DNA of 64,000 nucleotides from an uncultured Gammaproteobacteria bacterium. Lineage in GTDB: Bacteria; Patescibacteriota; Patescibacteriia; UBA11705; JABHMO01. The translations under genes were made by a program, and so were the position numbers. The stretch lies in assembly GCA_964565345.1 (NCBI GenBank), contig CAZMEQ010000001.1, positions 9,838 through 73,837 of the forward strand. Reading direction: 5' to 3'. Shown here piece after piece: positions 2,509 through 54,876 of this stretch; the stretch's first letter is position 1, and each line of letters begins with the position of its first letter. Under the pieces are notes generated by a model. The model was not told where the DNA came from. It did no database searches and saw nothing but the letters and a program-made list of their open reading frames with translations.

Positions 2509-2565
2509 ATAATGTTCGGAGTTGAATTCCGATCGATCAATCCAATTCAAGAAGGAGGTGTTCTC

Positions 2566-3072
2566 ATGAAACGCATGATGCGTTCGATCCTGGTTCTCGT
2601 TCTGGCGGTGGTGTTCTGCAGCGGCTGCGACTTCATCATGGTAGACCCGTACTCCTGCACCTACGACGAGCAGTGTGGCGACGGTCACTACTGTGATCTG
2701 GACAGCTACACCTGCTTCCTCGTCGCCTGGGAGTTCGGTGGCCCCAACTGGTGTTTCGAGGATTCCCAGTGCGGTCCCGGCTACGTCTGCAACCCTGCCG
2801 ACAATTTCTGCTACGAGGAGGGGAACGTAGGGTACCATCCGGAGGATCAGAACTACTTTACTGGGTGGGATGAGAGCACTGGGCAGTGCAAGAACCAGTC
2901 GCACTGTCGCCCCAACGAAATCTGCGCCAACGGCTGGTGCACGCTTCCGGCAGGTAGCCACAACGGCAACGAGCCGGGCTACTACGACAACGATGGCCGG
3001 TGCCAGGACCACACGCAGTGCGCCAGCGACGAGGTCTGCGCCAACGGTTGGTGCACCGAGGCGCATTGGTAG
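2566..3072 (+). CDS. secreted cysteine-rich repeat protein (signal peptide; four C-x5-6-C-x5-C-x5-6-C modules, two ending CANGWCT); high-GC island 1
   Basis: RBS GAAGGAGGTG lies 6 nt before ATG 2566. The N-terminus is MKRMMRSILVLVLAVVFCSGC. Repeats include CKNQSHCRPNEICANGWCT and CQDHTQCASDEVCANGWCT. G+C is far above the flanks, and the antisense shadow ORFs are typical of a high-GC gene. Confidence 0.7.
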   Translation: MKRMMRSILVLVLAVVFCSGCDFIMVDPYSCTYDEQCGDGHYCDLDSYTCFLVAWEFGGPNWCFEDSQCGPGYVCNPADNFCYEEGNVGYHPEDQNYFTGWDESTGQCKNQSHCRPNEICANGWCTLPAGSHNGNEPGYYDNDGRCQDHTQCASDEVCANGWCTEAHW

Positions 3073-3080
3073 ACAACAAA

Positions 3081-3112
3081 GGCCCCCCGATTCCCAAGTG
3101 AATCGGGGGGCC
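3081..3112 (+). terminator. perfect GC hairpin terminator of island 1
   Basis: GGCCCCCCGATTC ccaagtg GAATCGGGGGGCC, a 13-bp perfect stem immediately after stop 3070-3072. T-rich DNA follows. Confidence 0.7.
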
Positions 3113-3127
3113 TGTTCGTACATTTTT

Positions 3128-4681
3128 TTATTTTGCTAAATATTCTTGCAATAGTTTTTCTGTTACCTGCGGATCTGCCTTCCCCTTGGTTTCGCGCATA
3201 ATCAAACCGAGAAAATATTTTATCACCACCGTTTTTCCTGATTTATATTCAGCGACTTGTTCTGGATATTCGGCTACGGTTTTTATTATTATGTCGTTTA
3301 AAGCGCCTTCATCGCTAGTTTGAGAGAGGTCTAAATCTTCCATTATGTGTGAAGGGTCGGCTCCGGTTTCGGACATTTTTTTTAAAATAGTTTGAGCGGC
3401 TGCGCTATTAATTTTACTTTCATAGACAAGACAAATAAATTCGGCAAAATTTTCAGCCGTTATGTTACTCGAGTTAAAAGAAAGTCCAGATTCAGAAAGC
3501 AAAGGGAGGTATTTATTAACGAGCCAGTTAGAAACCAATTTGATTAATTTCGTTTTGTTATTAGCCCAAACTTCATCCTTGTTGCCACTAACATTATCGA
3601 GAGTTTCGATCCAATCCTTTAACTCAGTGATGACGTTTTCAGTAAACGAGGCCAATTTTTTATTTTCAGTTATTATTTTAGCTTCCTCGCCCGTGAAACT
3701 GTACATGTCCACAAAGCGACGTCTTTTATCTTGAGGGAGCTCGGGTATGGAAGATTTTATTTCAAGAATTTCTGCTTCGGTAATGTTTAATGGTGGCAAA
3801 TCTGGCTCGGGAAAGTAGCGATAATCGCTTTCGCCTTCTTTAACACGTTGGCTTATGGTTGTGCCACTAGCCTCGTCCCAACCGCGAGTTTCTTCTTTCT
3901 CCGGTGGAGTATTAGCTAACCAAAGGAGAGTTTGTCTTTCGACTTCATAGGCGAGCGCGCGTTCCAGCGCTTTAAAGGAATTGATGTTTTTTAATTCTGT
4001 TTTGGGGTAAAGTTTTTTGTCACTGACTGGTCGTAAAGAAATATTGCCATCACAACGCAGCTGTCCTTTTTCCATGTCTGCATCAGAAACATTTAAGTGG
4101 CGCATAATCAGTTGCAACTCTTGCCCAAAGGTTTTGGCTTCTTGCGGGCTGGAGAGGTCCGGTGCAGTTACAATCTCAATGAGTGGCGCTCCGCCACGAT
4201 TATAGTCAATTAAAGTTCCATCGCTGATATGCGTCGATTTGGCGGCATCTTCTTCCATATGCAAACGGATAATGCCAATTCTTTTTAGTTGTGTTTCATC
4301 TGTTAAGGAGCCAGCTAAACCATCACGAGCCTGCCAGTTTATAACCAAAGACCCACTTAAAGCGAGTGGTTTGTCGTATTGGGAGATTTGGTAGCCTTTA
4401 GGTAAGTCAGGATAAAAATAATTTTTCCGATCGAATTTGGTAAATTGAGTAATACTACAATTTAAAGCTAGGGCCGCCTTTATGGCCATGTTTACAGCTT
4501 CTTCGTTAATGGTGGGTAATACTCCTGGGTGACCTAAGCAGATAGGGCAGACATTGACATTGGGCTCCTTGGGGTCATTTTCGTTGGGGCAAGCACAAAA
4601 CATTTTAGTTTTTGTTTTGAGTTGAACATGGAATTCTAGCCCAATTATAGCTTCTAATTTCATAGGATAATGGTTAATCAA
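3128..4681 (-). CDS. gatB: Asp-tRNA(Asn)/Glu-tRNA(Gln) amidotransferase subunit B
   Basis: N-terminus EAIIGLEFHVQLKTKTKMFCACPNE is GatB-like, plus a C-terminal GatB/YqeY-like tail. 517 aa. Confidence 0.9.
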   Translation of the reverse strand: MINHYPMKLEAIIGLEFHVQLKTKTKMFCACPNENDPKEPNVNVCPICLGHPGVLPTINEEAVNMAIKAALALNCSITQFTKFDRKNYFYPDLPKGYQISQYDKPLALSGSLVINWQARDGLAGSLTDETQLKRIGIIRLHMEEDAAKSTHISDGTLIDYNRGGAPLIEIVTAPDLSSPQEAKTFGQELQLIMRHLNVSDADMEKGQLRCDGNISLRPVSDKKLYPKTELKNINSFKALERALAYEVERQTLLWLANTPPEKEETRGWDEASGTTISQRVKEGESDYRYFPEPDLPPLNITEAEILEIKSSIPELPQDKRRRFVDMYSFTGEEAKIITENKKLASFTENVITELKDWIETLDNVSGNKDEVWANNKTKLIKLVSNWLVNKYLPLLSESGLSFNSSNITAENFAEFICLVYESKINSAAAQTILKKMSETGADPSHIMEDLDLSQTSDEGALNDIIIKTVAEYPEQVAEYKSGKTVVIKYFLGLIMRETKGKADPQVTEKLLQEYLAK

Positions 4682-20046: not shown

Positions 20047-20126
20047 GAAAAGCTCTTTTGAAGGCGGTTGCAGGATGTAGCCGTCTGTCTGGTTCAGTTC
20101 AAAATTCCATTGGGAGGTACCCGACC

Positions 20127-21077
20127 ATGAGGAAAAACATCCTCACCCTGTGCCTGATCGTCCTGTCCCTGGCGGCCTGCTCCACGAAGGAGAAGCCCGC
20201 CGACCCCGCGCCTGTCGCGGTGGCGCCCGTGCCCGAGGTCTGCACCATGGACAAGGCCAAGGCGCAGGTCCAGTACCGGGGCTTCGATGTCGCGATCGAG
20301 GGCGACACCCTGGTCTTCACCAAGGTGCTCTCCGGCGCCGACGGCCAGCGCCTCGGTCGCGAGATGCACGAGTTCAAGGTCGAGGACGACCAGGGCCAGT
20401 GCAAGCTGACCGAGTGCGTTGCCAGCCGCGAGGTCTCGGGCGAGAAGCTCGAGAATCTGTTCTGCCAGAAGCGTTCGCGCTTCTACAAGAACGGCGCGCT
20501 GGTCTGGGAGGACACCCTCCTCAAGGACAGCCAGTGGCTGCGCAGCTACGCCGGCCTAGACAAGGTCCTGATGGACGCGCCCAACTGGGCTTCGTCCGAT
20601 GGAATGGACATCTACATGACCTGGGTCTTGCGTTCGGCCGACAAGGCTGTGCGGGTGCCGGTCTGGGGCGTCCGGGCTATCTGGATCCGGGAGGGCGACG
20701 ACTACACCCTCATGGGCGGGGAAGTCGTCCTCAAGAACCCGAAGCGCGCCCCCACACCCGAGGAGGTCGTGACCTTCCTGCGCACCAACGCGCAGGGCGA
20801 GGTCAACACGCGTGGCGTCCTGTACCCGGTCTCCGGGGAGACGTTCACGGCCTATCTCTCGTACCTCAAGGACGAGGATAAGGGCTGGGAGCGAGACCAC
20901 GCCGGCGACAGCGAGGCCATGCTGGCCCACTTCGACGGGCCGGTCAAGCTCTCGCGTGGCCAGACCTGGCCGCTGGAGCGCGTCTTCCAGCACCGCGGCA
21001 CCCAGCAGTCCCGGCTGCCCAACGTGGACCCCGGCTTCCTGCCGGGCTTCCCGCTGGTCCCCAAGCTGGGCCAGTGA
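20127..21077 (+). CDS. lipoprotein of unknown function; high-GC island 2
   Basis: RBS GGGAGGT precedes ATG 20127. The N-terminus MRKNILTLCLIVLSLAACS has a canonical lipobox (L-A-A-C). G+C is far above the flanks. The ORF track's upstream extension to 20058 is not supported. Confidence 0.7.
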   Translation: MRKNILTLCLIVLSLAACSTKEKPADPAPVAVAPVPEVCTMDKAKAQVQYRGFDVAIEGDTLVFTKVLSGADGQRLGREMHEFKVEDDQGQCKLTECVASREVSGEKLENLFCQKRSRFYKNGALVWEDTLLKDSQWLRSYAGLDKVLMDAPNWASSDGMDIYMTWVLRSADKAVRVPVWGVRAIWIREGDDYTLMGGEVVLKNPKRAPTPEEVVTFLRTNAQGEVNTRGVLYPVSGETFTAYLSYLKDEDKGWERDHAGDSEAMLAHFDGPVKLSRGQTWPLERVFQHRGTQQSRLPNVDPGFLPGFPLVPKLGQ

Positions 21078-21085
21078 CAACAACG

Positions 21086-21142
21086 CGGTTGGCGTAACCA
21101 ACCACCCCCACATCGACACGTCGGTGTGGGGGTATTTTGTTG
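21086..21142 (+). terminator. tandem GC hairpins plus T-run terminating island 2
   Basis: GGTTGG cgtaa CCAACC, then CCCCCACATCGA cacg TCGGTGTGGGGG, followed by TATTTTGTTGTT. Confidence 0.6.
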
Positions 21143-21192
21143 TTACTAATCAACAAATTTTGTATAATGTTTTTAGAAATAAAATAATTTAT

Positions 21193-26504: not shown

Positions 26505-26560
26505 AAATAACGCTTCCACGTAGAAGCAGGGTGTTTCAACTGTCCACTGAGGAGGAGCTA

Positions 26561-27052
26561 ATGACCGAGAAGAAGACGTGTCTGCAGGTGGAGAAGGAGA
26601 TCCGAGCGGGTCTGCCCGTCGGTTTCGCTGAGGCGGTGCGCTTCGACGTGCGCCAGTCCAAGAAGGGCTTGCGTGTCGTCGTGCCGAACCACCGGCTCGG
26701 CAAGATCGCGATCACCGCGACGTGCTTCAATGGCAACAGCGACCTCGTCGGTCGCACGATCTCCCACTTCACCCAGATCGTCCCCGAAGGAACCGTGGTC
26801 GAGGCCCCGCGCAACGTGGTGTGTGACCGGGTTCGCCGGGCGATTCGTGCCACGCTGCCGAAGGATTACGCGACCGCGGTGCGCTTCGATGTTCGTAGCG
26901 CTCGTGATGGCCTGGCCGTCATGATCCCGGCTCACCGCGCCAACGGCATCTACATCGATCGGCAGCGCTTCGAGCTGCCCGACCCCGATCGCCTCGTGAC
27001 CATGGCCGTCCGGCACATCTGCCAGTTCGTGCCCACGAACGCCACCGTCTAG
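26561..27052 (+). CDS. small protein built from two tandem ~70-aa repeats; high-GC island 3
   Basis: RBS GAGGAGGAG precedes ATG 26561. Repeat 1 is KEIRAGLPVGFAEAVRFDVRQSKKGLRVVVPNHRLGKIAI. Repeat 2 is RRAIRATLPKDYATAVRFDVRSARDGLAVMIPAHRANGIYI. No signal peptide. Far higher GC than the flanks. Confidence 0.6.
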   Translation: MTEKKTCLQVEKEIRAGLPVGFAEAVRFDVRQSKKGLRVVVPNHRLGKIAITATCFNGNSDLVGRTISHFTQIVPEGTVVEAPRNVVCDRVRRAIRATLPKDYATAVRFDVRSARDGLAVMIPAHRANGIYIDRQRFELPDPDRLVTMAVRHICQFVPTNATV

Positions 27053-27093
27053 ACACGGTGAGCTGATCTTTCTCTGACCAGACGCTGATTCAC

Positions 27094-27132
27094 GGCGCTC
27101 GTCCAATCACTTGGGCGAGCGCTAATTTTTTT
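27094..27132 (+). terminator. GC hairpin plus T-run terminating island 3
   Basis: GCGCTCG tccaatcacttggg CGAGCGC followed by TAATTTTTTT. Confidence 0.6.
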
Positions 27133-37542: not shown

Positions 37543-37584
37543 AAAAAAAACGGGACCTCGCTGTGAGCGGGGTCCCTTTGTTGT
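37543..37584. terminator. bidirectional GC hairpin between convergent genes (A-run / GGGACC..GGTCCC / T-run)
   Basis: AAAAAAAA CGGGACCTCGCTGTGAGCGGGGTCCC TTTGTTG. Serves the plus gene ending 37539 and the minus MTAP gene ending 37585. Confidence 0.65.
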
Positions 37585-38460
37585 CTAGTCGAACGGAACA
37601 CCTAAGATTCGGTTGCTGTCGTTGTCCGGTCTGGCCGATGCCGCCGTGTGAACGGCAAAGCCTTGCAGTACTTTCCGGCATTCGCAAGGAGGAAGCTTGT
37701 CCATGACGCAAAGAACTTGAGCGACCATGTTGTCGGTGAAGGAACCGAAGTTGGCCAACCCAGATTTGACTTCGTCGGCCGTGACAGCTTCGCCATCGCG
37801 CCAGGCATCATAATCCGAGGGCATGGCTACCACGGCATAGCTGATACCGGCTTCGCGTGCGAGAGCAGCCTCGGGTAGGGCGGTCATGCCAATTACGGTA
37901 GCGTCTGGAACAGTGTTACGGAAGAAGTGTGATTCGGCTGCGGTGGAGAACTGTGGCCCTTCGATGACCACATAGGTCCCCTTGGTGTGGACTTGCTTGG
38001 GGGCGCAACGCCGCGCACATTCGATGAGCGTTTCGCGCCACGGGGTGCAGAAGGGTTCACCCATTGGTACGTGCACGGCTAGTCCTGTGTCGAAGAAGGT
38101 TCGTGCGCGTAGCCCCTTGGTGAAGTCGAAGAGTTGGTCGGGGATGACGATGTCTTCACCAGGTGCAATGTAGGCTTGAAGGCTACCGACTGCGCTGAAG
38201 GCTAGGATGTGTGTGACACCCAAACTCTTCAGCGCGTAGATGTTGGCTCGATAGTTGACCTGTGATGGTGCGTACTCGTGTGCTTGTCCATGTCGTGGCA
38301 ACAAGACAACTTCGTGGCCAGTACTGAGTCTGGCAACAATCGGATTGGCCGAGGTGAGGCCAAAAGGAGTCATGCGAGGGAATACTTGCGTTTGATCGGC
38401 CGGGAGTTCGAGCAGCGCAGTGCCACCCAGGATTCCCAGTTTGGGTGTTACAGAAGTCAT
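37585..38460 (-). CDS. mtnP: S-methyl-5'-thioadenosine/purine nucleoside phosphorylase (MTAP/PNP family II); high-GC island 4
   Basis: N-terminus MTSVTPKLGILGGTAL (MTAP GIIGGSGL-type motif). HGQAHEY ... NIYALKSLGVTHI ... VIGMTALPEAALAREAG blocks. RBS GAGGT precedes ATG 38460. Very high GC. Confidence 0.75.
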   Translation of the reverse strand: MTSVTPKLGILGGTALLELPADQTQVFPRMTPFGLTSANPIVARLSTGHEVVLLPRHGQAHEYAPSQVNYRANIYALKSLGVTHILAFSAVGSLQAYIAPGEDIVIPDQLFDFTKGLRARTFFDTGLAVHVPMGEPFCTPWRETLIECARRCAPKQVHTKGTYVVIEGPQFSTAAESHFFRNTVPDATVIGMTALPEAALAREAGISYAVVAMPSDYDAWRDGEAVTADEVKSGLANFGSFTDNMVAQVLCVMDKLPPCECRKVLQGFAVHTAASARPDNDSNRILGVPFD

Positions 38461-38589
38461 GCCGGACCTCATTGTTGAAGGGCAAAACAGGCTTTGAGCC
38501 AAGTATAATTTTAGCTTAAATTAGTAGAAAATGCAAAAAATTATCTGGGTTGAAAAGAGAGTCTTTTTCTGGTAAAATAATGACACACT

Positions 38590-40182
38590 ATGTCAGTCGC
38601 CTTATATCGAAAATATAGACCGAAAAATTTTTCTGATGTTACCAATCAGAACCATATTAAAATTACCTTGCAACACGAAATTGAAAATGATCATTTGGGG
38701 CATGCGTATTTATTTTGTGGACCGCGTGGTACCGGAAAGACTACTATTGCACGTTTGTTGGCCAAGGCCGTTAATTGTGTAGATTTAAAACCCAATGCTG
38801 AACCTTGTAATGTCTGTGCTAGCTGTGTCGAAATAATGGAAAATCGTTCTTTAGATATAATGGAGGTAGATGCTGCTTCGCACACTGGAGTAGACAATGT
38901 TCGAGAAAATATTATCAACAACGCTCGTTTTACTCCAACCAAGAGTAAGTATAAAGTTTTTATTATTGATGAAGTTCACATGCTTTCCATTTCGGCTTTT
39001 AATGCTTTGCTTAAGGTTTTAGAGGAGCCGCCTAAACATGTAATTTTTATTTTAGCCACTACCGAAGCACATAAAGTTCCGGCTACCATAATTTCACGCT
39101 GCCAACGTTTCGATTTTAAAAAGATATTTGCTAAGGACTTGGTGTCTCGTTTAGGGTGGATTGTTCAACAAGAAAAAATGCAAGTTGATGAGAGCGTATT
39201 AAAAAGTATTGCCAAACAAGCGGGCGGATGTGTTCGTGATGCAGAAAGTTTATTAGAACAAGTTCTATCTTTGGGTGGAGAAAAAATCACCGAGGAACAA
39301 GCGTCATTAATTCTGCCACGCTCTAACCAAAATTTATTTTTAGATCTTTTTAAAATAATACTAAACAAACAAAAAGCCGAAGGCTTGATTTTGATAAATC
39401 GTTTGGTTGATGATGGTGTTGATTTAAATCAATTTATTGATTCTTTCGTTGAATTTTTGCGTCAATTATTAATTTACCGGGTTACCAATAACCCCCATGA
39501 TTTAGCTCGAGACTTGGATGATTCTTTGGTCACAGAGTGCATTGAATTGTTAAAAAACGTAGACGAAGCTAGGCTTATTGGCATGATTAGTAAATTTTTA
39601 GAAAATAAAGATTTGTTTAAACAAAACTATTTGACGCAGTTGTCATTAGAAGTGTCGGTGATAGAGTTGTGCGATATTAATAATGTTTATCAAGCTAGAC
39701 CGAAGATAGAAGTAAAAACTGAACCAAAGGTTGAAATAGTCCCTGCGAAGACTCAGATATCTGAGGAGTCAGTCGCCCCAAAACCAGTTGTTGATGCTGG
39801 GGATTTAGACAGCTTTATGTTGCATTGGCCTAAAGTTTTAAATGATGTTAAGGCTCAGCATTATTCCTTGTTTATGTCCTTGCATATGAGTAAACCATTA
39901 AGCTTTATCGAAGATAAGTTGGTGCTTGGTTTTTTATTTGAATTACAACGTTCTAGGGTTGACGATTTGAAAGCAAAGAATATAATTAAGGAAGCTTTAT
40001 TTAAAGTTTTTGGGCGCAAGATAGAAATAGAGACATTCATAGATCAAAATTTGTCTTTGGCTGATTTGCCCAAAAACAATAACATTGAATCGGCAATAGA
40101 GGTGCCACTCGCGCCGGTTTCTCCGGAAGATTCTGCAGCCGAGGATTTGGCGGGCGCTTTTGGCGGCCAAATTGTTAGTTAA
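38590..40182 (+). CDS. dnaX: DNA polymerase III subunit gamma/tau
   Basis: YRKYRPKNFSDV ... HAYLFCGPRGTGKTT Walker A, Zn module CNVCASC, SRC motif ISRCQRF. Confidence 0.9.
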   Translation: MSVALYRKYRPKNFSDVTNQNHIKITLQHEIENDHLGHAYLFCGPRGTGKTTIARLLAKAVNCVDLKPNAEPCNVCASCVEIMENRSLDIMEVDAASHTGVDNVRENIINNARFTPTKSKYKVFIIDEVHMLSISAFNALLKVLEEPPKHVIFILATTEAHKVPATIISRCQRFDFKKIFAKDLVSRLGWIVQQEKMQVDESVLKSIAKQAGGCVRDAESLLEQVLSLGGEKITEEQASLILPRSNQNLFLDLFKIILNKQKAEGLILINRLVDDGVDLNQFIDSFVEFLRQLLIYRVTNNPHDLARDLDDSLVTECIELLKNVDEARLIGMISKFLENKDLFKQNYLTQLSLEVSVIELCDINNVYQARPKIEVKTEPKVEIVPAKTQISEESVAPKPVVDAGDLDSFMLHWPKVLNDVKAQHYSLFMSLHMSKPLSFIEDKLVLGFLFELQRSRVDDLKAKNIIKEALFKVFGRKIEIETFIDQNLSLADLPKNNNIESAIEVPLAPVSPEDSAAEDLAGAFGGQIVS

Positions 40183-40289
40183 AAACCGCATTGTTCGGGG
40201 ATCATCCCCGTACTATACACCTGCGGTGTAAGTACGGGGCAGGCTAATGGTAGTTCCTTGCCCCGCACATTTTACAATTTAGTTTTATT
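40183..40289 (+). repeat. stacked GC palindromes between dnaX and tRNA-Gln, including a tRNA 5'-half-like fragment
   Basis: CGGGGATcATCCCCG (shares TCGGGGATC with the tRNA 5' end). CCCCGTACTATACACC tgc GGTGTAaGTACGGGG. GGGGCAGG CTAATGGTAG ttCCTTGCCCC (same CTAATGGTAG D-loop motif as the tRNA). Confidence 0.5.
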
Positions 40290-40291
40290 GC

Positions 40292-40365
40292 TCGGGGATC
40301 GTCTAATGGTAGGACAGCAGGTTCTGGCCCTGCTAATCTTGGTTCGATTCCAGGTCCCCGAGCCA
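40292..40365 (+). tRNA. tRNA-Gln (anticodon CUG), CCA encoded
   Basis: Manual fold: acceptor TCGGGGA/TCCCCGA, D-arm GTC-TAATGGTAG-GAC, anticodon stem GCAGG/CCTGC with loop TTCTGGC (CTG), T-arm CTTGG-TTCGATT-CCAGG, discriminator G, then CCA. Confidence 0.75.
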
Positions 40366-40408
40366 TAAAACTAAGCTTCGTAAGAAATGTAAAATGGTGC
40401 GGGGGTGG

Positions 40409-40443
40409 ACCTGCTTATCTTGGTTCGAATCCAGGTCCCCGAG
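40409..40443 (+). repeat. direct repeat of the 3' half of tRNA-Gln (att-site-like scar)
   Basis: CCTGCTTATCTTGGTTCGAATCCAGGTCCCCGAGC matches the tRNA 3' half from the anticodon stem to the acceptor 3' strand with 2 substitutions. There is no matching 5' half and no CCA. Confidence 0.6.
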
Positions 40444-40542
40444 CTGTGCGGTTTTTGTATTTATAGCAACAGGCAATATTTTTTGCATAAAAATGATATT
40501 TCGCATATAGCGTAAAACTTTGATTAAGGGTAGAATAAAGAT

Positions 40543-48319: not shown

Positions 48320-48360
48320 AAAAAATCTCCCCCACACCTATGCGTAGATGTGGGGGAGTT
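48320..48360. terminator. bidirectional GC hairpin (A-run / CTCCCCCACA..TGTGGGGGAG / T-run on minus)
   Basis: AAAAAAT CTCCCCCACA cctatgcgtaga TGTGGGGGAG, between convergent genes ending 48309 (+) and 48364 (-). Confidence 0.65.
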
Positions 48361-48363
48361 GCG

Positions 48364-49038
48364 TCAGTTCTTGCGCCCTCCCTTGCCCATGATCTTGAGC
48401 AGCTGGAGGAAGAGGTTGGCGATGTCGAGGTAGATCGCGACGGCGCTGTCCACCGCGTTGTCCAGGGTTCGCGGCAGCTGTACCGCGCGGTTCCAGTCGT
48501 AGATGATGTACAGGGTGAACAGCAATGCAGCCGCGTAGTCGATGAAGGGCCAGTCGTAGAGGTTGTTGCTCACTCCGAAACTGGCCGCGATGAGCTGTCC
48601 GAAGCGAACGAAGACGAGCACGGTGAGCGCACCGAACAGGTAGCCGCCCCAGCTCAGGAGGAGCGTGGGGAAGGCGACTCCGATGATGCTCATGACCACG
48701 GTCACAGCTGCGGTGGCCACGAGTGCGTTCACGACCACGGCGCTCTGGTACAGGTTGACCGTGGGGCCCATGATGGCACCCAGGCCGCAGACCACCATCA
48801 GGTAGCCCACCAGGCTCACCAGCCAGTTGTCGCTGCCCATCGCGATGAAGATGCCGATGATCGGGATGACCAGGCCCACCCCCAGCGCGGCCCAGATGTT
48901 GGGCTGCCAGGGCATGGTGAGGAAGGCGATACCGGCGGAGATAATGAGCCCCACCATCGTGAAGCCCGAGACCGCGAAGATGTACTCGCGGAGGCTGAGC
49001 TCCGAACCGATGCCTCGTTGTTCCGAACGTTCCCAAAC
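48364..49038 (-). CDS. Bax-inhibitor-1/YccA (TMBIM) family integral membrane protein; high-GC island 5
   Basis: Seven predicted TM helices and a C-terminal ...NLFLQLLKIMGKGGRKN typical of the BI-1/YccA family. The start was chosen at MVWERSEQRG; the upstream in-frame extension is possible. Very high GC. Confidence 0.65.
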   Translation of the reverse strand, partial: VWERSEQRGIGSELSLREYIFAVSGFTMVGLIISAGIAFLTMPWQPNIWAALGVGLVIPIIGIFIAMGSDNWLVSLVGYLMVVCGLGAIMGPTVNLYQSAVVVNALVATAAVTVVMSIIGVAFPTLLLSWGGYLFGALTVLVFVRFGQLIAASFGVSNNLYDWPFIDYAAALLFTLYIIYDWNRAVQLPRTLDNAVDSAVAIYLDIANLFLQLLKIMGKGGRKN

Positions 49039-49331
49039 CATGCTGGAAAGACCTATCTGACCCTCCACTTTTATAGGGAATTCATCTGTCCGAAATGGAC
49101 TTAATATTGTAATATAAAGACTAGTATTTGTCAAGGTAGGAGTTTTTATGTTTTCACCTAAAATTACACCTTATATTGACATTTTAGTCGTAATGCGCTA
49201 TACTTAAGATGTTTGTTAGGTGCTCAAAGAGTTTCCAAGGCCAAAGATCTTTAGTCTTTCGTGCGGAAGAAAGTTATTTGAGGTAAAGTGTCGACCTGCA
49301 ACATTTTATTAAAAAGACTAAGTACAGTACT

Positions 49332-53312: not shown

Positions 53313-54476
53313 ATGAAGATAGCCTTTATTGGTCAAAAAGGTATCCCTATGAAGTTTGGCGGCGTTGAAAAACATGTCGAGCGTCTTGCTGTTGGTTTGG
53401 CTGAACGTGGCCATAAAGTTTATGCTTACACGCGGCCATGGTATACCCCAGCCAAACAAAAAGAATATAAAGGAGTAAAATTGATTTCTTTGAAATCACT
53501 TAATACCAAAAATTTGGATGCGATCACCCACTCCTTGCGTGCTAGTCTGGATGTCTTAAAGCGTAATTATGATGTCGTTCATTATCATGGTGTGGGGCCA
53601 GCTTTAACAGCCTGGATTCCAAAGCTTTTTAAGCCAAGTTGTAAGGTTGTTATTACATTCCATTGTATCGATAGGTTCCATCAAAAATGGGGTCGCTTAG
53701 CTCGTTGGGCACTTTATTGGGGTGAATGGGCTGCTGTGCATTTTGCGCATGACACCATTACTGTATCTAAAAATTTACAAAATTATTGTGCTGATACATA
53801 TAGCGCTGATACTATTTATATCCCCAATGGTGTGGATAGAGTTCGCGAATCTTCTGCTCAAGTCATCAAAAAAAAGTACGGTCTAACTAAAGGGAGTTAT
53901 ATTTTGTTTATGTCACGTTTGGTTAGACATAAAGGCGCGCACTATTTGGTTAAAGCTTATAATGAAATTCAGACGGATAAAAAGCTAGTCATCGCTGGTG
54001 GCTCAGCTTTTACCGACGATTATGTTAATTGGTTAAAAAAAGAAGCTCAATACAACCCAAATATTATTTTTACTGGCAATATAACAGGTGGTAGTAATGA
54101 ATGGCAGGAATTATATTCCAATGCTTATATGTTTGTTCATCCCTCAGAAAGCGAGGGGCTTCCGATTGTTATTTTAGAGGCGATGAGTTTCGGCCTGCCT
54201 GTTTTAGCTTCAAATATCCCAGAAAACATGGAGGCAATTGCGGGCGGATATGGATTTAGTTTTAAGAACAAAAGTGTCAATGATTTAAAAAAGAAATTAC
54301 AATATTTATTGAGTTCGCCAGAAATAATAAAGCAAGTTGGTTTATCTGCGAAAGAACATGTTTTGGAAAATTATAATTGGAATGATATTGTTGTTTCAGT
54401 TGAACATGTTTATGAGGAGCTATTGCGTCGGAATGTAGTGCGTAGCTTTACTGGAAAAGCTATTCATCTAAAATAA
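53313..54476 (+). CDS. GT4-family glycosyltransferase (GT-B fold)
   Basis: C-terminal E-x7-E region: SESEGLPIVILEAMSFGLPVLASNIPE. N-terminal Gly-rich donor/acceptor region. Extended -10 TGCTATAAT lies upstream. Confidence 0.8.
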   Translation: MKIAFIGQKGIPMKFGGVEKHVERLAVGLAERGHKVYAYTRPWYTPAKQKEYKGVKLISLKSLNTKNLDAITHSLRASLDVLKRNYDVVHYHGVGPALTAWIPKLFKPSCKVVITFHCIDRFHQKWGRLARWALYWGEWAAVHFAHDTITVSKNLQNYCADTYSADTIYIPNGVDRVRESSAQVIKKKYGLTKGSYILFMSRLVRHKGAHYLVKAYNEIQTDKKLVIAGGSAFTDDYVNWLKKEAQYNPNIIFTGNITGGSNEWQELYSNAYMFVHPSESEGLPIVILEAMSFGLPVLASNIPENMEAIAGGYGFSFKNKSVNDLKKKLQYLLSSPEIIKQVGLSAKEHVLENYNWNDIVVSVEHVYEELLRRNVVRSFTGKAIHLK

Positions 54477-54593
54477 AAAATGTTGCGGACAACGCATACG
54501 CGTTGTAGGGATAGGTCGTTCACCTTCCGAAGTCTCGTACGGAGGACAGGCGACCTGTCCCTATCGCACGTCCCGTGCGGCCGCAACATTTTT
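54476..54593. other. A-run / 13-bp outer stem / T-run terminator-like element whose 92-nt 'loop' is a high-GC three-hairpin insert (four-way-junction fold)
   Basis: Outer stem AAAAATGTTGCGG (54476-54488) pairs with CCGCAACATTTTT (54581-54593). Inside are three hairpins: ACAACGC atac GCGTTGT; GGGATAGGTCG...CGACCTGTCCC with an internal CCTTCCG/CGGAGG sub-hairpin; and CGCACG tccc GTGCG. Confidence 0.5.
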
Positions 54594-54876
54594 ATTTTGT
54601 TGGGATTATTTTGGGATCTGGGCTAAACTTTTTGTTTTTTATACGCCATTGTTCGACGTATTGACCGAGCCCCTTTTTTTCGAGTTTGTTCTTGACTGAT
54701 GTTCTTTTTTGTGACCAGTTTAAAAGGCTTTCAAAGTTAATTTTATATCTGCCTTGGACTACGATATATCTTAGTTCTTCGCGGTTTATGGCCCGTCTAA
54801 TGGTGTGTGAATCAACCCCAAAGAGCCGAGCTGCCTCGGACACAGAAACTCTAATAGGATTTTTTTCTTGGTCCAT
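54592..54876 (-). CDS. small HTH DNA-binding protein of the excisionase/AlpA (MerR-like Xis) type
   Basis: VSVSEAARLFGVDSHTIRRAINREELRYIV is an HTH_17-like motif. 94 aa with a basic C-terminus. Confidence 0.45.
   Translation of the reverse strand: MDQEKNPIRVSVSEAARLFGVDSHTIRRAINREELRYIVVQGRYKINFESLLNWSQKRTSVKNKLEKKGLGQYVEQWRIKNKKFSPDPKIIPTK

Follow-up and report, generated by a model that had tools for sequence, protein, structure and literature searches.

The 64,000-nt stretch of contig CAZMEQ010000001.1 considered here (the window) carries, at 54476-54593, a structured intergenic element of about 118 nt set between two convergent genes. One of these (53313-54476, plus strand; Pfam Glycos_transf_1 / Glyco_transf_4) codes for a GT4 glycosyltransferase, whose protein groups with Patescibacteria, near Candidatus Falkowbacteria, of the candidate phyla radiation (CPR); the other, HTH_17 (54592-54876, minus strand), codes for an excisionase-type helix-turn-helix protein and has a near-consensus promoter, TTGACA-17-TATACT, at 54952-54924. 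The syntenic block Fur - GT4 - HTH_17 - extracytoplasmic function (ECF) sigma - DUF5667 is kept in relatives with a GT4 identity of 70-83%. The outer stem of the element is a perfect 13-bp complement of AAAAATGTTGCGG (54476-54488) and CCGCAACATTTTT (54581-54593); with one bulge, its arms lengthen in an inverted-repeat search to 54471-54488 / 54581-54598 (18 nt, 89%). The 5' arm, an A-run followed by ATGTTGCGG, overlaps the GT4 stop codon (TAA, 54474-54476), and the 3' arm, CCGCAACAT followed by a T-run, overlaps the HTH_17 stop codon (54592-54594, minus strand). In the RNA fold, the interior 92 nt (54489-54580) form three hairpins: the side hairpin P2 (54489-54506; ACAACGC-ATAC-GCGTTGT, 7 bp and a 4-nt loop), the central hairpin P3 (54507-54562), in which a 3x3 internal loop separates a 14-bp lower stem (AGGGATAGGTCGTT / GGCGACCTGTCCCT) from a 6-bp upper stem capped by a 10-nt loop, and the side hairpin P4 (54564-54580; TCGCACG-TCC-CGTGCGG, 7 bp and a 3-nt loop). 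The result is a near-perfect four-way junction, with A54563 as its sole unpaired nucleotide. A GTAG tetranucleotide stands at 54505-54508, directly before the P3 stem, and the apex of P3 holds a conserved 32-nt core (54519-54550; plus strand TTCACCTTCCGAAGTCTCGTACGGAGGACAGG) that is read on the minus strand as CCTGTCCTCCGTACGAGACTTCGGAAGGTGAA. Sequence and fold thus agree with the preliminary description of this DNA, made from its letters alone, as to the 13-bp stem around 92 nt, the three hairpins and four-way junction, and the convergent genes with the HTH stop codon inside the outer stem.

The 13-bp arms are by themselves unremarkable, as the AT-rich window holds 30 pairs of inverted repeats of at least 13 nt; it is the fold as a whole that stands out. 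The minimum free energy (MFE) of the plus-strand RNA is -68.5 kcal/mol, against -34.4 +/- 3.4 for shuffled sequences (z = -10.0; 0/200 shuffles equal it), and that of the minus strand is -59.0 kcal/mol (z = -6.7). The GC content reaches 64% in an 80-nt sliding window, against a mean of 38.8% over the 64 kb. Both the energy of the fold and the homologues found elsewhere, described below, lie well beyond chance. The element is located in the 3' untranslated region (UTR) of both convergent genes, and the GT4 transcript would end at it. A U-tract follows the stem CCGCAACA on both strands, U5AU4 on the plus and U6AU4 on the minus strand. A terminator consensus scan limited to loops of 3-8 nt makes no call for the element, whose loop is 92 nt, and calls no further terminator-like hairpin within the GT4-HTH_17 spacer.

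Six syntenic relatives (L001, L003, L006, L009, L010 and L086; L numbers denote the loci compared, of up to 8 kb) have a plain bidirectional terminator at the same site, in a spacer of 36-43 nt. Its hairpin is a single A-run / stem / T-run, as in L006 (AAAAATGTACCA-loop-TGGTACATTTTT). The 92-nt interior is thus a feature of the lineage of the window alone, and the filled site in the window and the empty orthologous sites in the six relatives constitute a presence/absence polymorphism. These relatives and the U-tracts on both strands bear out the earlier view of the flanking A- and T-runs as those of a bidirectional terminator. Other relatives carry different insertions in the same spacer. L082/L083 (2010-2150) keep the plain terminator and add a different element, of about 125 nt, bounded by GTCATsCCG-type terminal inverted repeats of 15 bp (TCTCTGTCATGCCGT / ACGGGATGACAGAGA), and in L085 (1965-2210) the spacer is filled by one hairpin with arms of about 100 bp. 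These different palindromic insertions make the GT4-HTH spacer an insertion hotspot; to judge from the sequences compared, this convergent spacer evidently accepts and tolerates palindromic elements.

A second, homologous four-way unit is found between unrelated convergent genes, holA-like / rpsT, in the CPR contigs L024 and L043, which are identical in sequence and come from two samples, one of them also the source of the relative L001. The layout is that of the window: an outer stem (AAAAAATGTTGGG / CCCAACATTTTTT) whose 5' arm is homologous to that of the element, a first hairpin, a homologue of P3 likewise preceded by GTAG, and a third hairpin, with both stop codons inside the A/T flanks. 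The two elements are 82% identical over 132 nt. When 47 pairs are compared, the pairing of P2, P3 and P4 is complete (100%) in each copy, with six two-sided compensatory changes, three of them among the 7 pairs of P2 and three in P4. One further pair of P4 is altered on one side with pairing kept, three more pairs change to or from G-U, and one pair of the outer stem is lost on both sides together; two C-to-T changes in the window copy give G-U on the plus strand. In a control in which the 3' partners are slid by 1-3 columns, pairing falls to only 40-49%. This comparison indicates that the four-way fold is maintained between the two copies, and such a fold, maintained at unrelated loci in related genomes, has the look of a mobile or copied element. 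The preliminary description had allowed that the structure might lack conservation in related sequences; it is conserved, and with compensatory changes. The window, which shares no synteny with L012, L024, L046 and L047, has no empty counterparts of the sites occupied in those loci.

The core at the apex of P3 belongs to a much wider family. An 18-mer from this apex (54526-54543, TCCGAAGTCTCGTACGGA) was scanned against Joint Genome Institute (JGI) metagenome contigs and against one genome per species. The metagenome scan gave 36 loci, of which about 29 match well past the 18-mer and belong to the family and 7 look like chance; the genome scan gave 34, 33 of the family and one chance-like. The carriers in the genome scan are Flavobacteriaceae (Muriicola, Maribacter, Winogradskyella, Flagellimonas, Spongiimicrobium, Sungkyunkwania and Spongiivirga), Balneolaceae / Rhodohalobacter, Saprospiraceae, Candidatus Gracilibacteria and Candidatus Peribacteria, with a maximum of 3 exact 18-mer loci per genome. 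A 21-mer of the window copy, in contrast, has no match in the genomes, because that copy departs from the family in this stretch. On the minus strand the 32-nt core reads CCUGUCCUCCGUACGAGACUUCGGAAGGYGGR, in segments CCUGUCC-UCCG-UACGAGACUU-CGGA-A-GGCGGG. The 7 nt on either side of the 18-mer, where conservation is not imposed by the search, are mostly 80-98% conserved per column, with the minimum at the T/C and G/A wobble positions. Past the core the stem is lineage-specific yet complementary: GCCTGCCTGCC / GGCAGGCAGGC in Flavobacteriaceae, GTACGTGYARGTCG / CGACYTRCACGTAC in several CPR contigs, and AGGGAYAGGTCG / CGACCTGTCCCT in the window and L024. The GTAG tag varies as well, being GTAC in CPR variants and absent from the copies of Flavobacteriaceae.

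A covariance model, R1, was built from 61 distinct copies and searched over the locus set and the window. It matches the window copy at 54502-54567 on the minus strand (59.9 bits, E = 1.3e-14) and 65 or more copies in the locus set, including divergent ones, which differ chiefly at two loop positions; it finds no copy in the syntenic relatives. The hairpins of this family have a GC content of about 55-65% in every host, regardless of the GC content of that host. The element had been likened at the outset to the GC-rich coding islands of the window; it is indeed GC-rich, but the composition of the family in other hosts takes away the likeness to the islands. No paper with the string of the core was found in the literature searched, and the repeat family is apparently undescribed.

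All copies examined are intergenic. Of the nearest genes upstream, 32 lie on the strand of the copy and 26 on the other; for the nearest genes downstream the numbers are 28 and 32, so that orientation relative to genes is roughly random. Eight contigs have more than one copy, with a density of 2-4 copies per 8-kb locus and a maximum of 4 within 1.4 kb, and all extra copies are co-oriented (12/12); part of this co-orientation stems from genes that were duplicated along with the repeat upstream of them, as seen from the long common flanks in L052, L060 and L067. In mosaics of Bacteroidota and Gracilibacteria the core stands beside recurring boxes, GTCATTCCGAGC / GCTCGGAATGAC, TCCCGATAGCTATCGGGA and TTCGACTGCGCTCAATCTGACA (L050, 1700-3200; also L051, L054, L062 and L073), and 'empty' hairpins, with the same basal stem and no core, occur in L047, L080 and L055. 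Flavobacterial copies (L063, L071, L052, L017, L060, L039 and L048) often adjoin members of a paralogous, membrane-anchored protein family, MIKFFRKIR...IGEIILVVIGILIAL, one of which has an in-frame SLPGQQAGH insertion that resembles a translated repeat of the GCCTGCC type. A tie between the core and these paralogues was considered and rejected, as position and strand are inconsistent. A CPR contig, L046, has another GC-rich, nested, multi-hairpin intergenic stretch at 3290-3400 (CCGCGCCCCG ... CCGGACCCCGG ... CCCCGTATTAAATACGGGG ... CGGGGCGG), and nested multi-hairpin structures appear to be common in this clade.

We regard the element as a composite intergenic palindromic DNA repeat, of the kind of the repetitive extragenic palindromes (REP) and bacterial interspersed mosaic elements (BIME) or of the miniature inverted-repeat transposable elements (MITE), that now serves as a shared bidirectional terminator; we give this reading about an even chance of being right. 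It draws on the structure, on the insertion polymorphism, on the second homologous copy elsewhere and on membership of a multi-copy family that crosses phyla, and from these we infer the mobilisation mechanism, the enzyme and the terminator activity of the element. Three palindromic units would be enclosed by a terminal inverted repeat with an A-run and a T-run, and this composite repeat would have entered, or replaced, the short bidirectional terminator between GT4 and HTH_17 in the lineage of the window only. The core, at the apex of the central unit, may be the recognition hairpin for a putative enzyme acting in trans, which would copy such units, probably in single-stranded form, as the REP-associated tyrosine transposases (RAYT) and the IS200-type transposases do for REPs. 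The closing stem, with a U-tract on each strand, most likely continues to terminate and protect the two convergent transcripts; the inner three hairpins would form first and the outer stem would close last. The preliminary description had offered a small non-coding RNA, a miniature inserted element or a riboregulator. It is the inserted element that gains from the empty sites, the copy at an unrelated locus and the multi-copy family, while the two RNA options are less likely.

Several observations weigh against a mobile repeat. No target-site duplication is present at the ends of the element, where the flanks ...CTAAAATAAAAA and TTTTTATTTTGTT... are inverted and not direct. The outer stem, AAAAATGT.../...ACATTTTT, is partly common to the plain terminators of L003 and L006 and also to the L024 copy, so that insertion into the loop and replacement of the whole terminator would fit equally. 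The 64-kb window holds no second copy (by exact search, with 3 mismatches, by blastn or with R1), and none is present in the collections of phages, plasmids or viral contigs. Copies show no replication-strand bias by GC skew (23 versus 25). Among about 100 open reading frames (ORFs) flanking the copies, inspected by eye only, no transposase or recombinase was noticed, and these ORFs resemble ordinary housekeeping genes. Finally, the core is near-invariant across phyla, whereas REPs usually have lineage-specific sequences, and this fits functional constraint at least as well as mobility. No RAYT was noticed either among the flanking ORFs, again by eye and within loci of up to 8 kb, and no autonomous insertion sequence (IS) with matching ends was seen; plasmid and phage records gave no matches.

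The comparison with known systems is similarly divided. REP families exist in which variants with short loops and with long self-complementary loops, of up to 27 nt, share the same stem, and in which dimers and clusters occur; roles in termination and mRNA stability have been proposed for them (PMC3733652). The element resembles the REP/BIME class, with its GTAG tags, its REP doublets forming hairpins (REPINs) and its mobilisation by the Y1 enzyme RAYT, in that REPs, too, are GC-rich, imperfect extragenic palindromes, often placed after stop codons or between convergent genes, that are multi-copy, occur in either orientation and form mosaics with other units. Moreover, GTAG opens the P3 stems of the window and L024, and the roles proposed for REPs, transcription termination and protection of mRNA 3' ends, are those that would suit the element. 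It differs from REPs, of 20-40 bp, in its hairpin of about 56 nt with a 32-nt apex conserved in sequence, in a core common to several phyla where REP sequences are usually genus-specific, in an apparently low copy number (one per 64 kb here and a few per 8-kb locus elsewhere, where REPs run to tens to hundreds per genome), in its four-way nesting inside a terminator-like inverted repeat, and in that no RAYT was found among the flanking ORFs (by eye) and GTAG is missing in most lineages. With MITEs and other small palindromic elements (Correia, RPE, ERIC and BOX types) it shares a non-coding length of about 100-130 nt, terminal inverted repeats (here of 13 bp, perfect, or of 18 nt at 89%), presence or absence at orthologous sites, a place in intergenic spacers and a stable fold once transcribed. 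In contrast to MITEs, it lacks a target-site duplication, no parent IS with matching ends is known, it is most conserved at its centre and not at its ends, and its termini also serve a terminator as A-run and U-run. As in a bidirectional intrinsic (Rho-independent) terminator, the position is between convergent stop codons, an A-tract and a T-tract give a U-run on each strand, and relatives have such a terminator at the same place, but the 92-nt loop is itself made of three hairpins. On these comparisons, the element appears to be set apart from the known REP and MITE families and would be a member of no named family.

A tRNA-like cloverleaf also has a four-helix junction and a long closing stem, but the window copy lacks the signature nucleotides of the D loop and T loop. 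In a Bacteroidota metagenome-assembled genome (MAG), L074 (1-140), the core hairpin and a palindromic box are accompanied by a genuine-looking T arm, GCGGGTTCGATTCCCGC, and by an acceptor-like stem, GAACATG / CATGTTC; these parts combine into a tRNA-like cloverleaf, for which ARAGORN makes no call. An identity as tRNA or tmRNA was rejected, as ARAGORN and RF00005 find only the tRNA-Gln at 40292-40365 in the window and L074 is negative, too. The match to an RNA family for which the preliminary description had looked to Rfam did not materialise. Rfam 15 has no family at the gathering thresholds (window and 20 loci) or at permissive ones (E<=10 for the element, E<=1 for 8 loci), and the sole Rfam overlap with the motif is a 15.6-bit chance match of mir-BART15. 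Integron attC sites were rejected because the outer arms, GTTGCGG ... CCGCAAC, have the reverse order of RYYYAAC ... GTTRRRY and match it imperfectly, and there is no cassette array. No core of a hammerhead, twister or pistol ribozyme was seen by eye, and no self-cleaving ribozyme was matched by Rfam. A candidate kissing contact between the loops of P2 and P3 is not kept in L024, and a mimic of the sarcin-ricin/loop-E motif on the minus strand (GUA/GAA) was discarded, as the alternative apical pair G31-C38 is unsupported, G31 varying without compensation.

Could the element as a whole, or failing that the 32-nt core hairpin, be a functional structured RNA, that is, a protein-binding 3'-UTR or small-RNA module whose four-way fold is itself under selection? 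We think this rather unlikely. In its favour, the fold is very stable (z = -10), the two four-way copies differ by six compensatory changes and no disruptive ones, and a near-invariant core on variable yet paired basal stems is what is expected of a recognition hairpin. Read on the minus strand (CCGUACGAGACUUCGG), the core forms a continuous helix that includes two U-G pairs and a C-A mismatch, all conserved, and the frequent one-sided variants of the core (U-G to C-G, G-C to G-U and U-G to U-A) keep the pairing on that strand. Moreover, the element is in the 3' UTR of both convergent genes. Against this, DNA palindromes also undergo compensatory change, and two-sided compensatory changes within the core are almost absent, so that the conservation of the core is one of sequence and not of structure alone. 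A tally of the Watson-Crick pairs of the core gives 18 departures to G-U on one strand and 18 on the other, and this equal tolerance, together with the random orientation relative to genes, leaves no clear RNA strand. In addition, no pair of promoter and terminator marks out a separate transcript, no Rfam family matches, and close relatives with the same genes lack the element, which is thus dispensable for them. Taken together, the data fit a hairpin that is recognised single-stranded, as DNA or RNA, by a sequence-specific partner.

A duplex recombination site fits less well. The core might act as double-stranded DNA on which a site-specific recombinase works, like a dif, lox or pdif site, and might delimit small gene modules, an idea we consider improbable. 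As a duplex, the core consists of two imperfect 11-bp inverted arms (CCTGTCCTCCG / CGGAAGGCGGG), which differ by 3 transitions and enclose an asymmetric spacer of 10 bp, and in arms and spacer alike it is the sequence rather than the pairing that is conserved; where a contig has several copies, these always share one orientation and often enclose one or two genes (L017, L019, L032, L052 and L060). However, the long lineage-specific stem extensions, of up to 14 bp past the arms, stay paired, and a duplex site needs none. The core sites of tyrosine recombinases have inverted arms of 11-13 bp and spacers of 6-8 bp; the spacer of 10 bp found here is longer. No recombinase gene was noticed, by eye only, beside the copies, and co-orientation can also come about when a gene is duplicated with its upstream repeat (L052, L060 and L067). 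That there is nothing special here, the terminator loop having grown by local duplication or slippage or the fold being due to chance, is very improbable: AT-rich genomes are indeed rich in palindromes (the window has 30 inverted repeats of 13 nt or more) and the outer stem resembles the ancestral terminator, but none of 200 shuffles folds equally well, a homologous copy lies at an unrelated locus, and the 60 or more copies of the core in other phyla and the compensatory changes relative to L024 refute it.

The 32-nt core hairpin, CCUGUCCUCCGUACGAGACUUCGGAAGGCGGG, may represent a new class of functional nucleic-acid motif, common to Bacteroidota, Balneolaceae and several CPR lineages, a proposal that we hold to be less likely than not. 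If it is correct, the core could be the recognition hairpin of an undescribed system of single-strand DNA mobilisation that places its units on the tips of existing hairpins such as terminators, or else a protein-binding RNA module of a new kind; in its four-way version it would amount to a portable cassette, complete in itself, for bidirectional termination. CPR genomes are tiny and streamlined, and their non-coding DNA and mobile repeats are little known. On the reading of the element as a composite palindromic repeat, even the terminators of convergent genes in CPR bacteria would be colonised by nested palindromic units. A near-identical core in distant phyla would point to a mobilisation system that CPR bacteria and Bacteroidota of the same waters have recently exchanged or to a conserved function of an uncatalogued partner protein or RNA. 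The covariance model R1 offers a handle for locating all copies, a co-occurring enzyme and an effect on 3'-end formation.

Two other kinds of GC-rich feature occur in the window, the single-gene islands already alluded to and a segment next to the tRNA-Gln gene, and neither bears directly on the four-way element. Five single-gene islands with a GC content of 56-78% interrupt the 38.8% GC background at 2562-3130, 20080-21152, 26511-27130, 37544-38500 and 48321-49071; in this order, they code for two lipoproteins, the first Cys-rich and the second of 316 aa, for a protein of 163 aa, for an MTAP-like PNP_UDP_1 protein and for a Bax1-I protein. Just outside each island stands an AT-rich sigma-70 promoter close to consensus, and each island comes with a GGAGG ribosome-binding site and a terminator that is GC-rich. 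The proteins of the islands have no homologues in the other CPR loci, and the core-carrying CPR contigs L012, L024, L043 and L046 have similar GC-rich islands. In L087 the MTAP-like island occupies the same syntenic place and is likewise GC-rich (60%), with a protein identity to the window of only 53%; this island is thus old and has stayed GC-rich in spite of the low GC content of the genome. A tie of the element to these islands is unsupported, as the hairpin is GC-rich in all hosts and at least the MTAP island is old.

Between a DnaX-like gene and tRNA-Gln (40292-40365) lies a GC-rich segment with three hairpins (40180-40291). It is 92% identical in DNA to its counterpart in L087, more conserved than the flanking proteins, and has a compensatory change from C-G to U-A relative to that locus. 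The segment holds a stretch, CTAATGGTAG, resembling the D arm of tRNA-Gln, and may represent a structured RNA under conservation or a leader derived from a tRNA. In tRNA-Gln itself the acceptor stem is lengthened by 13 bp of flanking complementarity, TTAGTTTTATTGC / GCCATAAAACTAA (40279-40374), and about 40 nt past the tRNA (40400-40470) there is a duplicated piece, GGTTCGAATCCAGGTCCCCGAGC, that resembles a tRNA 3' half; both the extended acceptor stem and the 3'-half-like piece are also found in L087.

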